Under the pieces are notes generated by a model. That model was given only the letters and a program-made list of their open reading frames with translations, did not search any database and was not told the origin of the DNA. From assembly GCF_018977255.1 (NCBI RefSeq), contig NW_024704742.1:112904001-112968000 (forward strand): 64,000 nt of DNA, written 5' to 3'. Origin of the DNA: Callorhinchus milii (taxonomy: Eukaryota). The position numbers were made by a program, and so were the translations under genes. Positions 18,685-63,940 of this stretch are shown here, in pieces (position 1 is the stretch's first letter; every line of letters starts with the position of its first letter).

Positions 18685-19037
18685 TGAGGTAGGTCATGTT
18701 TATTAGTTTGTCCCCAAATCGTGGACATTACTTTTGCTGCTTATGGAGTCCAGCATCTCATTGCTACTGTGGAAGATACTAGCCTGGCTGACTGACAAAG
18801 ATCAATTACTGGGGTGGCAACCACAATACCAGCAATTGGAGGCTCCAACCGTGAGTGAGAGGAAGAGGGCCTCACACCCAAACTAGTCAATAATTAAAGA
18901 CTATTGTGGACCACAAATTTCAGTACTATCACATCAGCATGGAATCAAAGAATCATAGAAATTTACAACATAAAAGAAGGCCATTTACCCCATCCTGTCT
19001 GTGTTGGCTCTTTGAAACAGCAATCCAGTTGGTCCCA

Positions 19038-19134
19038 AATAAAAACAGAAGTCACTGGGATTATGCAGCAGGTCAGGTAGCATCTATGGAGAGAAGAAAG
19101 TGAGTTGATGTTTCAGGTCAATGACCTTTTGTCA
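19038..19134 (-). mobile_element. ~100-nt Penelope-type repeat with a decayed minimal hammerhead ribozyme
   Basis: Minus strand reads CTGACAA-A-AGGTC-ATT-GACCT-GAAAC-ATC-AACT; flanked by GTCCCA at 19032-19037 and 19135-19140. Confidence 0.7.
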
Positions 19135-19433
19135 GTCCCATTTACCTGACAACTCCTGCAAATTTAATGTTTCACATTTTTCATCCCATTATTTTGTTTC
19201 CTCATTTACCCACTGACAGATGTTTGTGACCAATAGGAATAGTCTAATGCATTATGCACTGCCAGATTTTCATGCAGTATACATCCACTCAGATTAATAA
19301 CTGGGGAGTTAACTGAAGCACACAGCATTTAATCTGAGTATGCAGAAATGCACTCTAAAATATTCACTTAGATGCATAACAAGGGATTTAGTCTTATTAA
19401 TACATGCCTGTCTATTCTGCCAATAGAAAAATA

Positions 19434-19537
19434 TGTTCTGATGAAGGGTCGTGAACCCAAAACGTTGACTCACTTTCCTTTCTCCATAGATGCTGCCTGA
19501 CCTGCTGATTTTTCCCAGCTCTCTCTGTTTTTGTTTC
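19434..19537 (+). mobile_element. ~100-nt Penelope-type repeat with a decayed minimal hammerhead ribozyme
   Basis: CTGATGA-A-GGGT-CGTGA-ACCC-AAAAC-GTT-GACT; flanked by AGAAAAATA at 19425-19433 and 19538-19546. Confidence 0.72.
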
Positions 19538-22284
19538 AGAAAAATAAGTTTTTTTTTGTAACATAAGGGTGTACTATTAGTAAAAATATACATATTGCAT
19601 CAATTTTGTTGCTCAAGCTTTATAAAAAAGTGCCGATTATTTTTGTCAGTTTTGAACAAATATGAAAATGTTGACCATTGGGAAATACAAACTGTCACCG
19701 GCATTAATAAAGACTGAACAATATGTGATTAAAACAACAAATAAATATATAGATAATTTGCGGTGTTCTTTATTTAATGCTGGCATAAATTACCATCCAC
19801 TGGGTGGCAGGACATTCCTCCGGGTAAGTCATTGCTTCCTTTTCAGGTCTTAACACCTGCCAATCGGACTGAATCTGAGGCAGGCATTTTTTATCACATA
19901 AATTTATGGACCATACTTTGGAATCTAATTTATTTTTGATTGATATGTATTATCAATTGTTGATATGTGGAGAAAATGCATACTTTCCATTTAACTCCTC
20001 AGCTCCTCTACTAAGCACTCCTGGCGTGAACGGCACTATATCAAATGCAAGGATTATTATTATAATTTTTTTTTATCAATCGAGCAGTAAGGCTAAACCC
20101 AAAACCTCTGGACCATTCAGCAATAGTCAATTTTTAGCCAAATCATGCTTTCCTCTCCTGGAGTGTAAGCCTAAACTATGAGCTTCAGTGCCTGATGCAG
20201 GGCTTGAATCCATAATCTTGTTCACCAGAGGCAAAAGTTTTACCAACTGAGCTAAGCTTTTAAATAATAAACTTGTATTTAATGTAGAATATTGATTTGT
20301 AGGCAAATGCAGCCGTTAATCTGTGCCAGGATTGTCCCATAAACAATATCTAGATAAGTAACAAAATTGGATACATAAAGGGAAGCATGATTAAATTATT
20401 TGATTATAATGTTATGCTAAACAGATTTCACATGCACTCTTAAAAAAGAGCAAATTTATAAAACAGAACAGAGAATATGAAGGAAAAATCTAAAAAAAAG
20501 TCTCAACCTGGAGATCAAATTGACAAATGTACAAGGTCAAATGAATAATTCATTAGGCTCCAATACTGAACTGAAGCCTCGTTTTATATCCGTTGTGATA
20601 AACAGGCAGGATGTTGATTCATGCTTTTTATCAACAAGAATTTTACATGGTTGAAATTCTGATCACCATCGAAGCCAGTTAGTCTTTGGAATCCGGTGTT
20701 CCTTCTCTGTAGTCCAGACGCATAGGAGTAGATATTTGGAGTGTCAGTACATTTACCATCAATTTATTGCCAAGCAGAATATGTCAATCAAAATGTTAGG
20801 GTACTTTGAGCAGTATAAATGCCACTGTGTATTCTGATGAAGGTTAAGTATAATGGCAAGCAAGTGAATTGAGGAAAACAATTTGTCCAATTATGGAAGT
20901 GTGTGTGGTGGGAGTACATCCAATGAATTTAAATAATGCTGTATGTTCTAGTCTTTGAAATCACATTCAATACTATAAATCAGATTGAAACCATACTTTC
21001 AGCATGCATACAGAGTAAAGTTAGCATTTCCAGAACATGTTGTATTTCCCATTGCTTAAAAAACAATCTGAAGACTGGAATTACAGAGTTTCGGGGTATA
21101 ATGGCTGAAAGGATGGCCACCGATGATGGAGCGGAGGGGACGAGGGACACCTCCACACTTAGATTAAGGGTAACTTGAGCTACAGAAACTTTTCTAAGTG
21201 TTCAATGCAATGGAAACTAAGCAGAATTATTGGAGCAAAGTGCTTTGGATTTAACTGAGACACTGGTGAAAAATTTTGTAAATTTTAATGTTTTATAAAC
21301 GAGGCTCTTTTGCGATATATATCTGGTTATATCAGCTACATTCTTACCTGATAAAGGTGAAGAGTCACATTCTTTGGCATCTTGACTAATAAAAAGGGAA
21401 AAAAGTCCAAAAATTTCAGTCCAGTCTGAAGAAAAGGCAAATGCAGAATATTTATTTTTGATGTGTTATTTGGATTATCTTATTATTCAGCCATCTTTAT
21501 TCTGCATGTTTCTAACGTGGAATTCCAATTGCAGCCCTTTCATACTACCTTATACCATCTCAAGTGGATTCACAGTCAGAACTTCTATGGTTGTACATCA
21601 TGGAGACCCTTGTACGCGGTGAAAGAAATGGATTAAAGTTAAAGAAAACATTATATATTTACTATACATCACTAACATTTCCATTTTAAAGACAAGATTT
21701 ATTATTAATTGAAACTATACTTTTCATTGAACAGTATAACTGTTGTTAGGAGGAGCCATTGTCTACAATCCCATGACTGTTAATTAGTAGAATGCTAGTT
21801 CACAACTCCTCTATTAAAAAATAAAATGAACCTCGTATGTCAAATCTCAACTCCTGATTGACTAGAAAGTGACATGATGATTCATTTTTAATGATATTCC
21901 TCAAATATTTCATTAAAAGATGTTTCTGGTGAATTTCATGCTCAACAAGGTGAGGGTGAAAGTGTAGGAGAATGGATTATGGAGCATATTGTTAAAAGAA
22001 TAATGCAGAGTACTTATTTGTAAATAAAAGGTAAAAACCCGCATCTGTTTTTTTCTATTTACACATTCCACTCTCGTAATTATAATCACTCAGTAGGCCT
22101 CCAGTAAACGATGACAAGAGAAATTGGGTCTATTCATTTCATCTCATGGCATCAGAACACCTAACTTGATAATAATTATAATAATAATTCTTGCATTGGA
22201 TATAGCACCTTATCAGCACTCTAAGACTCTACTCTGGGTGGAGGGCATTATATAGGTGCAAGTTGTTGTTGTTATTATGCTGTT

Positions 22285-40483: not shown

Positions 40484-42270
40484 AGAATAGTTTGGATGAA
40501 GAAGTTCCTTTGTCCATTCGATCTCAACCTAGCACTAGGCCCACAAAATACACGGTCAAACTACTTTACAGTATATGCTATGAAGTGCTTTGAGGCACCT
40601 CAACAACATGATAAGAAGCTGTATCAAACGCAAGGATTATTATAATATTATTACATTATTATTATTCCAGAATACCCACCCTACTGTCCTCCCATCACAG
40701 CATTATAATGCATTTTCAATGAGTACAGTATCCTAATCTCAACTTTCCTGGCATCCTGTTCCAGTCACTCATTACACTCTGGGTAAAGAAAAGAGAAGCA
40801 ACTTTTTTAATGAAAACCTTGGCAACGGTTCAAGGCTCATAGTATATCATACCATCACAGTTGAACAAAATGGAATAAAATGTTAGATGTCAGAAGAAAT
40901 GGTTAGATGATGCCAAAGTTCAACCATTCTAACCACGCTTTATGGAACTCCTCCTCACCTCATCCCCTCCCCTCCCTCCCGATTTTTAATGCCCACCTTA
41001 AGACCTTTGGTCACCTTTCCTCTCCTCCTTACTCAGGGCCCCCACTCACCAGTTCAGGCTCCCAGTTGGCTGTGAAGCACTTTGAGATGTCCTCCTAACT
41101 CTAAAGATGCTGCATACATGTAAAATTTATGTAGAATTATTGCTGTTGAACTGGTAGTTTTATCTATCAACATAAATATGCCTCAATATGTCTGCTTTAA
41201 GAATGCTTTGAACCACCAGTCTCACAATTCCATCGAGTATCAGCCTTTCAGACGATTTTGTCCTATGTTTTACGATTGTAAAAAATTCTTTAATCAAGTC
41301 TTCATTTGGAATTGGGTTATTTTTAAAAACTATGATTTTCAATTTGAATTGAATTTTTCTCCACAATTCTGCACAATCTTATATTTTAAGATAATACAGT
41401 TTCAGAGGGTGAGACCATGATGAATTTCAGGCTATTATTCATTGTGAGCTTTGAATAGGATAGCCAAGAAATCCAAAGAAATTGATAAGTGTCCAAGCAC
41501 TTCCCTTTATAATTTTAGGATTAAGCAATAATTCATCACAGAATATTTCCCCTTTAATAAAACAATGTGATTTCAAAAAGTGCACATCAATAAATCAAAT
41601 CCAAGGACTATTCTTAGGAGAAAATGTACACTGGAGCTGTATTTATTGGGCTTGGATTTAGGCTAGGTGCCCTGCTGCTTCTCAATGCTAACATCAATTA
41701 ATAGTCAAGTGCATCCATACGGAAAAGATAGCAACACACATCCCTGCATTTAAAAGGCTTTAGAATTTTGCTCTTCTGTCATGCAAGGCTGCCATCTGAA
41801 GCTTGTAAATTTCTGGTGAATGTGATCACATATGTTTCCACTATTGTGCGCAACAGTGGCATTGTAATGCACAAATTGGCTGCCGTGTGCGACTACAAAT
41901 ACACAGTTACTTTATAGTATACCTATGAAGTACTTTGAGATGTCTTCCTGACATGAAAATCATTATATTAAATACAAATATTATTATTATTTATAGTACA
42001 TTTCTGCAGCTGATGCTTGAAATTAAAATTCCCAAAATATATGTTGTTAATTTTTAAGGAAGAGGGAATTACTGAAGCAAAGATACAGATCCATTGTTGT
42101 GTAAGATTCTGGTGAAAGCAACAGTACAAGGCAGGTTTTCCTTAAAAGAGATTATTCATTAAAACAAATGACTCAGAGGGGACCTCATAGAGATGTACAA
42201 CATTTTAAATGGCCTGGAAAAAGTAAACATAGATCAATACGTTAGAATGCAACAAGAGAATAGAATAAGT

Positions 42271-42588
42271 GGAGTCCTGTAGGTCAGTGGTTAGAGCACT
42301 TGCTTTGCAAGCAAGACACCTGGGTTCAATTCCAGGCAGGGCGAAACCTTGGGCAAGTTTCCTTACTCCACACGCCTAATAATAATCCCTCCAAAAAACC
42401 CAAAACAATAATAAATTGGTCATTTTCAATCTACGACTGTTTGTGGGACATTGCTGTGCGCAAATTGGCTGCCGCGTTCGCCCACAAATATACAGTCAAT
42501 TCACTTTACAGTATATTCTGTGAAGCGCTTTGGGACGTCCTCCCGACGTGAAAAGCGCTATATCAAATGCAAGGATTATTATTATTAT
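42271..42588 (+). mobile_element. Young tRNA-Ala SINE at the duplication junction (hybrid)
   Basis: Full length; shares the GTAGGTCAG variant with the 44377 copy but differs downstream. Confidence 0.92.
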
Positions 42589-44376
42589 AATAGTTTGGAT
42601 GAAGAAGTTCCTTTGTCCATTCGATCTCAACCTAGCACTAGGCCCACAAAATACACGGTCAAACTACTTTACAGTATATGCTATGAAGTGCTTTGAGGCA
42701 CCTCAACAACATGATAAGAAGCTGTATCAAACGCAAGGATTATTATAATATTATTACATTATTATTATTCCAGAATACCCACCCTACTGTCCTCCCATCA
42801 CAGCATTATAATGCATTTTCAATGAGTACAGTATCCTAATCTCAACTTTCCTGGCATCCTGTTCCAGTCACTCATTACACTCTGGGTAAAGAAAAGAGAA
42901 GCAACTTTTTTAATGAAAACCTTGGCAACGGTTCAAGGCTCATAGTATATCATACCATCACAGTTGAACAAAATGGAATAAAATGTTAGATGTCAGAAGA
43001 AATGGTTAGATGATGCCAAAGTTCAACCATTCTAACCACGCTTTATGGAACTCCTCCTCACCTCATCCCCTCCCCTCCCTCCCGATTTTTAATGCCCACC
43101 TTAAGACCTTTGGTCACCTTTCCTCTCCTCCTTACTCAGGGCCCCCACTCACCAGTTCAGGCTCCCAGTTGGCTGTGAAGCACTTTGAGATGTCCTCCTA
43201 ACTCTAAAGATGCTGCATACATGTAAAATTTATGTAGAATTATTGCTGTTGAACTGGTAGTTTTATCTATCAACATAAATATGCCTCAATATGTCTGCTT
43301 TAAGAATGCTTTGAACCACCAGTCTCACAATTCCATCGAGTATCAGCCTTTCAGACGATTTTGTCCTATGTTTTACGATTGTAAAAAATTCTTTAATCAA
43401 GTCTTCATTTGGAATTGGGTTATTTTTTAAAAACTATGATTTTCAATTTGAATTGAATTTTTCTCCACAATTCTGCACAATCTTATATTTTAAGATAATA
43501 CAGTTTCAGAGGGTGAGACCATGATGAATTTCAGGCTATTATTCATTGTGAGCTTTGAATAGGATAGCCAAGAAATCCAAAGAAATTGATAAGTGTCCAA
43601 GCACTTCCCTTTATAATTTTAGGATTAAGCAATAATTCATCACAGAATATTNCCCCTTTAATAAAACAATGTGATTTCAAAAAGTGCACATCAATAAATC
43701 AAATCCAAGGACTATTCTTAGGAGAAAATGTACACTGGAGCTGTATTTATTGGGCTTGGATTTAGGCTAGGTGCCCTGCTGCTTCTCAATGCTAACATCA
43801 ATTAATAGTCAAGTGCATCCATACGGAAAAGATAGCAACACACATCCCTGCATTTAAAAGGGCTTTAGAATTTTGCTCTTCTGTCATGCAAGGCTGCCAT
43901 CTGAAGCTTGTAAATTTCTGGTGAATGTGATCACATATGTTTCCACTATTGTGCGCAACAGTGGCATTGTAATGCACAAATTGGCTGCCGTGTGCGACTA
44001 CAAAATACACAGTTACTTTATAGTATACCTATGAAGTACTTTGAGATGTCTTCCTGACATGAAAATCATTATATTAAATACAAATATTATTATTATTTAT
44101 AGTACATTTCTGCAGCTGATGCTTGAAATTAAAATTCCCAAAATATATGTTGTTAATTTTTAAGGAAGAGGGAATTACTGAAGCAAAGATACAGATCCAT
44201 TGTTGTGTAAGATTCTGGTGAAAGCAACAGTACAAGGCAGGTTTTCCTTAAAAGAGATTATTCATTAAAACAAATGACTCAGAGGGGACCTCATAGAGAT
44301 GTACAACATTTTAAATGGCCTGGAAAAAGTAAACATAGATCAATACGTTAGAATGCAACAAGAGAATAGAATAAGT

Positions 44377-59009: not shown

Positions 59010-59587
59010 AAATTTTATAATTAATTCTGGGGGTACAACACTTTCCATGGCAAATCATTGATTGTCCTCTGTTTATGCAAGGGCTTCATACCTTTTGTTA
59101 CCACCTGGCAAGCTTTGAAATGTAGAAACCGATTCATTTGGTTCCAAATGTCTCAAAGGAAATAAGACAAACTTTAGACCTTTATCCCTGATTGTGTTTT
59201 GTGTGGTGTTTGATGCCAGGACATTCCCCAAACACTAAATGGTTGCCAGATTTCACATTCCATACTCACTGGCAGGTACATAACTTCCAGGATGCATCAA
59301 GTAACTTCAGTTGTATAAGATTTGCTGTTGTGTCATTCAGAAGTCTGGCATGCTTTCAGAAACAATTAGTGTTTTGAGGTTGTCTAAACAGGATGCTGGA
59401 AACAGGTGTGTGTAAGAGGTTTTGCTTTTGGTTCACTGGGAAAACAAAGGGAGGTGAAATCCCCTGCACATTAAATGTGTACATTACACGTGTGACGCCA
59501 TGTCTGGTTTTAGCGCTACCTATGCTTGGTGTGGGTATCCTGCTCAATATTAATGGTAAACATGCAGCATTACTGTTAAATAATAGC

Positions 59588-59898
59588 AATAATAATAATC
59601 CTTGCATTTGATATAGCGCTTTTCACGTCGGGAGGACGTCCCAAAGCGCTTCACAGTACACACTGTAAAGTGAATTGACTGTATATTTGTGGGCGAACGC
59701 GGCAGCCAATTGCGCACAGCAATGTCCCACAGTTGTAGATTGAAAATGACCAATTTATTATTGTTTTTGGTTTTTGGAGGGATTATTATTAGGGGTGTGG
59801 AGTAACGAAACTTGCCCAAGGTTTCGCCCTGCCTGGAATTGAACTCAGGTCTCTCGCTTGCAAAGCGAGTGCTCTAACCACTGAGCTACAGGACTCCA
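59588..59898 (-). mobile_element. Young tRNA-Ala SINE (CTCCC loop)
   Basis: Full head to tail. Confidence 0.92.
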
Positions 59899-63621: not shown

Positions 63622-63940
63622 ATAATAATAATAATAATCCTTGCATGTGATATAGCGCTTTTCACGTCGGGAGGACGTCGCAAAGCGCTTCACAGAACAC
63701 ACCGTAAAGTGAATTGACTGTATATTTGTGGGCGAACGCAGCAGCCAATTGCGCACAGCAATGTCCCACAAACAGTCGTAGATTGAAAATGACCAATTTA
63801 CTATTGCTTTTGGTTTTGGAGGTATTATTATTAGGCGTGTGGAGTAAGGAAACTTGCCAAAGGTTTCGCCCTGCCTGGAATTGAACTCGGATCTCTCGCT
63901 TGCAAAGTGAGTGCTCTAACCACTGAGCTACAGGACTCCA
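63622..63940 (-). mobile_element. Young tRNA-Ala SINE (CTCCC loop)
   Basis: Full head to tail. Confidence 0.92.

Follow-up and report, generated by a model that had tools for sequence, protein, structure and literature searches.

Minimal hammerhead ribozymes (min-HHRs) are known from the pseudo-long terminal repeats (pLTRs) of metazoan Penelope-like elements (PLEs): they are of type I, with a 4-bp helix I, an extra base between positions 9 and 10.1, a palindromic 15.2-16.2 and no helix III, and they occur mostly as single dispersed motifs, some of them as opposite-strand pairs 100-700 bp apart (PMC4209133). The available portions of that report leave copy ends, target-site duplications (TSDs) and the start site unmapped, and name no cartilaginous fish. 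We describe two inserts that carry a hammerhead of this kind in a 64,000-nt stretch of the Callorhinchus milii genome (the 'window': assembly GCF_018977255.1, contig NW_024704742.1, positions 112,904,001 to 112,968,000), which contains exactly two copies of the hammerhead unit. Both are probably dead retro-copies ('stubs') of the leader of a PLE, made from an RNA with a capped start at -1 by a reverse transcriptase (RT) that began internally and ran off the RNA end. Unit positions are counted from 0, the G three bases 5' of the CUGA core (19435 in the right copy; the left copy begins at unit +3, which is 19135).

Neptune elements are endonuclease-bearing (EN+) PLEs, with an RT, a Cys-rich linker, a C-terminal GIY-YIG domain, a ~30-nt tail on one arm, a head-to-head inverted partner, TSDs of about 7-16 nt, and TATA plus initiator (Inr) motifs in a pLTR (PMC8557442; PMC3846280). 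The family at our locus resembles them in all these respects, and differs in that many of its insertions consist of the hammerhead-to-tail segment alone, with a sharp 5' edge; in PLEs generally, a tail of 30-40 bp and an inverted partner are optional (PMC8557442; PMC3846280). PAc, a Poseidon element of the green anole, has in vitro two internal RT start sites downstream of its hammerhead, between which the tail lies, and its main template is the uncut hammerhead RNA (PMC11167929); a similar arrangement is probable here. However, PAc belongs to another clade, its open reading frame (ORF) begins in stem II rather than, as here, at an ATG ~35 nt past the tail, and it primes without target homology (PMC11167929); each window copy, by contrast, has 1-3 nt in common with its TSD. 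Non-LTR retrozymes are likewise non-coding and PLE-derived, carry a type I hammerhead and include dispersed monomers; they also form head-to-tail tandems that self-cleave and circularise (PMC7229834; bioRxiv 10.64898/2026.07.22.740005). In contrast, the inserts described here stand alone or in head-to-head pairs, and have stem I, not a cleavage-defined unit, at their start.

PLE min-HHRs, their solo and opposite-strand occurrence, tails, inverted partners and internal initiation are already in print. Our literature search, with Repbase and Dfam outside it, returned no paper that ties such stubs to the start of a transcript, and none on the element in cartilaginous fishes.

Two separate hammerhead insertions

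In alignment, the two arms (19037-19135 and 19438-19536) are 99 nt each and 76% complementary; they diverge across a spacing of 302 nt, much as the first-pass annotation of this sequence had described them. The left insert (19037-19135, minus strand) is a subfamily-B stub that spans unit +3 to +101 and lacks the 5' strand of stem I. Its GTCCCA repeat stands at 19032-19037, where the last base is common with the insert's 3' end, and at 19135-19140, where the first base is common with the insert's 5' end. The right insert (19435-19540, plus strand) is a subfamily-A stub spanning unit 0 to +105. It is flanked by direct repeats of AGAAAAATA at 19425-19433, followed by one additional T at 19434, and at 19538-19546; the last 3 nt of the insert are common with this TSD. 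Both copies lack the known ~30-nt tail; the ~100-nt unit originally proposed thus fits the two window copies and falls short of the full unit, which is ~135 nt.

A TSD search over 82 insertions, from which copies running into the upstream pLTR or lying close to locus edges were left out, recovered a repeat of at least 8 nt in 33 cases, against 0.1% of 1500 mismatched flank pairs: TSDs are a trait of the hammerhead-stub family. Repeats of at least 9 nt arise in 0.1% of mismatched pairs, which places the right TSD beyond chance; the left one, at 6 nt, is weak on its own because 7% of such pairs show repeats of at least 6 nt. In related copies of the host repeat at the left-insert region, GTCCCA is found in 2/9 and TCCCA in 4/9. 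The proposal that each unit carries its own TSD is accordingly secure for the right insert and less so for the left.

The right copy is 94-97% identical to its relatives, and the left copy is 88-92% identical to another set. The majority sequences of subfamilies A and B differ at 14/96 sites, and each window copy is closer to its own: four differences in 96 nt separate the right copy from A, and nine in 96 nt separate the left copy from B. True inverted pairs of this family have arms no more than 35 nt apart under a single TSD. With 302 nt between the arms and two TSDs, we are dealing with neighbouring insertions, independent of each other and drawn from two subfamilies. A single inverted-repeat element spanning both arms, which the annotation had also rejected, is ruled out on the same grounds.

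In both units the hammerhead boxes are found as they had been described. The left remnant (19103-19135, minus strand) has G8 changed to A, G16.2 to A and U17 to C, in addition to the lost stem I strand; the right remnant (19435-19470, plus strand) has G12 changed to A (19459) and the closing pair of stem II broken (19454). Judged from these changes, both would be catalytically dead, in agreement with the earlier opinion. The subfamily majorities, on the other hand, have both core boxes (CUGANGA and GAAA), a 5-bp stem II preceded by one extra A, a 4-bp stem I and a minimal, palindromic stem III. In its boxes and helices, this hammerhead matches the PLE min-HHR, as had been surmised. Relative to the published motif (PMC4209133), helix II here has 5 bp, the cleavage triplet is GUU, and subfamily B has an A-U pair in stem II in place of the conserved G10.1-C11.1, the pair being G-C in subfamily A. 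The core is intact in 36/60 subfamily-A copies and in 13/30 subfamily-B copies, the query having skewed the latter set toward changes that the window copy itself carries; an intact natural example is L022:1566-1610 (minus strand).

The cleavage triplet is GTT (GUU) in 50/60 subfamily-A copies and GTC (GUC) in 0/90 copies of A and B together. A U17 at the cleavage site makes for slower cleavage. CpG sites of subfamily A are mutated at 16%, compared with 2.4% elsewhere (~7 times faster). The suggestion that CpG decay altered the two cores is thereby borne out, while the ancestor inferred with it, with a GUC triplet (GTCGAC), finds no support, given the absence of GUC. Rfam hammerhead models, the scan the annotation had recommended, gave no match at the window region or on a near-intact copy, and minimum-energy folding returned a competing fold at -11.4 kcal/mol against -8.2 kcal/mol for the hammerhead fold (the spans differ slightly). 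Cleavage of dimers by PLE hammerheads is known (PMC6765202, a review).

The parent element and the ends of its copies

In some copies the unit is preceded upstream by a pyrimidine-rich pLTR and, beyond that, by coding sequence. An RT with a C-terminal GIY-YIG is joined to the hammerhead terminus at loci L027, L036, L059 and L092/L093, every copy that was read being broken; this is the Penelope RT/GIY-YIG element with the same terminus that the annotation had proposed to look for. At L027, RT-side sequence, a Cys-rich linker and GIY-YIG coding sequence lie upstream of an A-type unit. The direct Pfam match of this locus is weak (E 0.14); it is 62% identical (E 4e-49) to protein P0002, which has RVT_1 and GIY-YIG matches. 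Among named proteins, those nearest to the linked gene are from rays and a shark. A Zn-finger-like linker of the form CX2-5CxxC between RT and endonuclease is reported for Neptune, Nematis and Naiad (PMC8557442), and in L027 the Cys motif precedes the GIY-YIG region, which points to Neptune or Nematis; going by this motif alone, we tentatively regard the parent as a Neptune-type EN+ PLE.

The unit stands at the pLTR end after the RT/GIY-YIG gene, and again just before the ORF start: at four loci (L101, L105, L109 and L004) the tail runs into the start of an ATG-led ORF, the first ATG of the long frame being that ~35 nt beyond the tail. The near-full-length copy L092/L093 ends at +100 without a tail, like the window copies. 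We found no intact autonomous copy of subfamilies A or B (L091 is truncated). At L036:1876-1997, a subfamily-A stub is inserted in the endonuclease region of a subfamily-B element, from which subfamily A is the younger. Fragments of the same PLE coding region also lie at G000:C1:112976040-112976770 and 112999682-112999789, 8 and 32 kb past the window end.

Two further observations concern coding sequence. Small contigs (G000:C1063, at 2834, 5830, 8823 and 11817; C888, C162, C269 and C235) hold tandem stop-free frames of ~825 aa at a spacing of ~3 kb. These frames show no more than a weak match to the outgroup protein, are distant relatives of the Penelope-like protein and are possibly a young, intact, different PLE family. 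Pyrimidine tracts ending in AG, one of them 3 nt before the ORF ATG, lie at L101:280-335 and L109:330-365, and at unit positions of about +36 to +55 and +85 to +105. These tracts resemble splice acceptors, and the leader with hammerhead and tail may contain an intron.

Our least selected sample of the family comprises 14 bystander insertions, all other sets having been chosen by similarity to a query: four are short and start near 0, five start at +14 to +88, four are long and one is an internally deleted derivative. Among 53 non-query copies, the 3' end falls at 93-111 in 36, at 126-135 in nine and elsewhere in eight. The 5' ends were tallied at 30 loci selected on the unit's final 64 nt alone (five of which were already among the earlier loci). 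Thirteen of these start at -3 to +6 and 13 at +8 to +49; three start at -395 or further upstream, and one is the second unit of the deleted derivative. No start at all (0/30) lies between -6 and -390. Intermediate starts do occur in other sets, at -14, -43, -50, -65, -151, -208 and -257. The 3' end falls at two places and the 5' start varies, so that copy length is clustered, not fixed: the non-random 5' boundary that had been claimed is real, piling up at the 5' edge of the hammerhead, and the fixed length claimed with it is not found. ORF-side copies also tend to begin at 102-107 and 131-133 (7/15), a second cluster that we discount because the query edge lies at 130.

When inverted pairs are picked by the 5' part of the unit, one arm is tailed and the other tail-less in 15/18, and among the 13 tail-picked copies truncated at +8 to +49, ten have an inverted partner that starts at about 0. 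The inner junctions of such pairs (for example at L021, L033, L034, L037 and L084) have at their centre a CAG-TT-CTG mini-palindrome (-2 to +5), a sequence that would permit fold-back of complementary DNA (cDNA) or annealing of two cDNA ends.

The internally deleted derivative begins exactly at 0 (L004:1216-1606, minus strand; also L005 and L087, G000:C1241): hammerhead and tail are followed by ~95 nt of the ORF and then by a short-homology jump to a second hammerhead unit. The two head-to-tail hammerheads of L004, 257 nt apart, are retrozyme-like, and are the only tandem units that we encountered, other pairs being head-to-head; a second inverted match lies 3 kb off on the same contig.

What sets the 5' boundary

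Several features converge on the 5' edge. The CCAGTTC that lies there fits the Inr pattern YYANWYY in 11/12 long copies, and positions -30 to -24 are 95% A+T in 11 long copies (TATAAT in subfamily B); this TATA-like box stands 29 nt upstream of the edge, outside the stub. In 35 single short copies the match to the template is lost gradually from -1 to -2: 21 retain A(-1) and 27 retain G(0), and C(-3) appears only at background (seven copies). Of the junctions that retain A(-1)G(0) and carry a base other than the templated C just before it, 7/9 have G there (p 0.002, post hoc). An RT can read the cap as an extra G, as is known from L1 work. Furthermore, 18/19 ORF-side copies do not extend upstream of 0 (15 of the 19 being top-ranked junction-spanning matches), and contigs and reads of other runs have loose ends at 0/+1 and -2.

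The Inr, the TATA-like box, the excess of G and the failure of nearly all ORF-side copies to pass 0 lead us to propose that the RNA probably begins, capped, at -1 and that an internally started RT runs off its end. Transcription from the TATA/Inr promoter in the pLTR would start at A(-1), the base that opens hammerhead stem I on its 5' side, a combination of TATA and Inr having been described in a pLTR (PMC3846280). The PLE endonuclease would cut the target, and RT would begin inside the RNA at either of two sites, ~100 or ~134 nt from the cap, and run off its 5' end, leaving an insert of ~100 or ~135 nt with a TSD. Use of both cut strands, or fold-back of the cDNA, would yield a head-to-head pair. 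The hammerhead would be copied uncut, and CpG decay would later have killed it in the two window copies; the 5' end of the stub cannot come from hammerhead cleavage, since the cut would fall at +32. Stubs made in this way would have left the TATA box behind and would be missing the downstream RNA on which the anole protein depends (PAc needs ORF nucleotides to +172; PMC11167929), so that they should not propagate.

We also weighed what speaks against this run-off account. No RNA 5' end has been seen: the RNA data are one raw polyA single-cell run, from another organism, which reads both strands about equally and in which 79% run into other sequence, and neither this run nor the contigs contain a site where many molecules start. 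The motifs at the edge fit a branch point plus 3' splice site as well, and helix I is where an intron of D. virilis ends (PMC4209133). In that species the promoter lies internally (PMC2377424), and if the same held here the stubs could be transcribed. Selection of the copy sets by query similarity, the bystanders excepted, counts on this side too. Finally, ORF-side copies reach 0 in 1/18 cases, compared with 13/26 short copies (p 0.002), and 9/11 ORF-side copies at risk stop between +71 and +28, compared with 5/30. Simple run-off leaves these stops unexplained and a further cause is needed: there may be a collision with the first cDNA, the hammerhead may cut late, or the copies may belong to older subfamilies.

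The best-surviving alternative, which we nevertheless think unlikely, is that the stubs are ordinary 5'-truncated PLE 3' ends: RT would set out from a long transcript's 3' tail and tend to stall or switch template at the hammerhead or the CAG-TT-CTG palindrome, with no RNA end at -1. Truncation at the 5' end is the norm in PLEs (PMC8557442), solo min-HHRs have been called probable truncated PLEs (PMC4209133), 13 of the 26 short tail-picked copies stop within the hammerhead (+8 to +49), and several inverted junctions are centred on the palindrome. Yet stalling does not readily produce the cliff at the 5' edge (0/30 starts between -6 and -390), nor does it account for a TATA-like box and Inr at canonical spacing or for the excess of G at -2; moreover, one would expect stalling on the hairpin's 3' side, not past its 5' base. 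The annotation had itself named random 5' ends and missing TSDs, as in truncated Penelope ends, as the outcome that would count against it: TSDs are present and the 5' ends are non-random, yet a parent with the same terminus does exist.

The annotation's own interpretation, a non-autonomous mini-element moved in trans, here spelled out as self-propagating, with an internal promoter, transcribed from its own first base and moved by the Neptune protein, strikes us as distinctly doubtful. It would suit stubs whose first base is the presumed start site and which, in a depth profile, are far more abundant than upstream pLTR sequence, and precedents can be cited: the internal promoter of D. virilis (PMC2377424), pLTR sequences able to mobilise RNA in trans (PMC3846280) and non-autonomous PLE derivatives (PMC8557442; bioRxiv 10.64898/2026.07.22.740005). 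That ORF-side copies seldom reach 0 also suggests that the template of the stubs may differ from the mRNA. A separate non-autonomous family is nonetheless not what we find, the unit belonging to a PLE with RT and GIY-YIG. In a tree of 94 rows, long copies fall within both well-supported subfamilies (6/55 in the A clade and 4/29 in the B clade) and the label 'long' requires 13 changes; short copies thus appear to have no lineage of their own, in an alignment that is short (95 columns), has low power and in which the label is mildly clustered (11/500 shuffles were as low), a further caution for our own reading. Diagnostic changes that would set the stubs apart as a SINE-like family (SINE, short interspersed element) are likewise wanting in this tree. 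No 3' flank is common to the stubs among 77 tail-bearing copies, beyond common host repeats. The TATA-like box, besides, lies outside the stub, and stub length is variable, with only 4/14 bystanders both short and starting at the hammerhead edge.

Least of all do we credit a boundary set by a 3' splice site (branch point, pyrimidine tract and CAG) or another processing site, with stubs as copies of processed RNA: the upstream motif fits a splice acceptor and the intron end of D. virilis at helix I offers a precedent (PMC4209133), but the would-be intron bases are kept (A(-1) in 21/35, G(0) in 27/35), there is no common upstream exon, TSDs are directly adjacent in several copies, and processing by the hammerhead would place the end at +32.

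Neighbouring repeats and wider meaning

An old repeat flanks the left insert at 18942-19031 (minus strand, its 3' end; E 2e-18 to L045). We take it to be CR1; the adjoining piece of its ORF has no match in Pfam. The annotation had the left insert splitting a CR1 3' untranslated region, which is no more than plausible: the old repeat on the left is well matched, but its continuation on the right of the insert is not significant, 86-387 of 500 shuffles having scored as high. Elsewhere in the window there is a young, SINE-like repeat family of ~320 nt, with members up to 97% alike, at 597-920 and in at least ten more copies (for example 42270-42591, 59579-59898 and 63622-63940). At L018, L025 and L041, stubs lie in the A+T-rich end of repeats of this ~320-nt type.

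The window locus is ordinary debris of an abundant retroelement: the 14 bystander insertions come from about 0.3 Mb of flank, a rough figure that suggests copies in the tens of thousands for each genome. On the run-off account, what such debris might preserve is a step of the Penelope cycle for which our literature search returned no description, and here we go no further than a tentative proposal. RT would start 100-135 nt from the cap, and the commonest product would be the full 5' leader, with the hammerhead uncut and sometimes with the cap read as G; in the boldest form of this proposal, stubs with an intact core and an internal promoter would spread as the smallest ribozyme-bearing non-autonomous retroelements. 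Long cDNAs from the 3' end mostly stop at or after about +28 (17/19), perhaps a sign that cutting at +32 by the hammerhead takes place at a late stage of the cycle.

The stubs form a natural data set on how PLEs integrate and what their hammerhead does: counts over thousands of short, sharp-ended, TSD-flanked copies can test where the RNA starts, the two RT starts and how the inverted partner arises.

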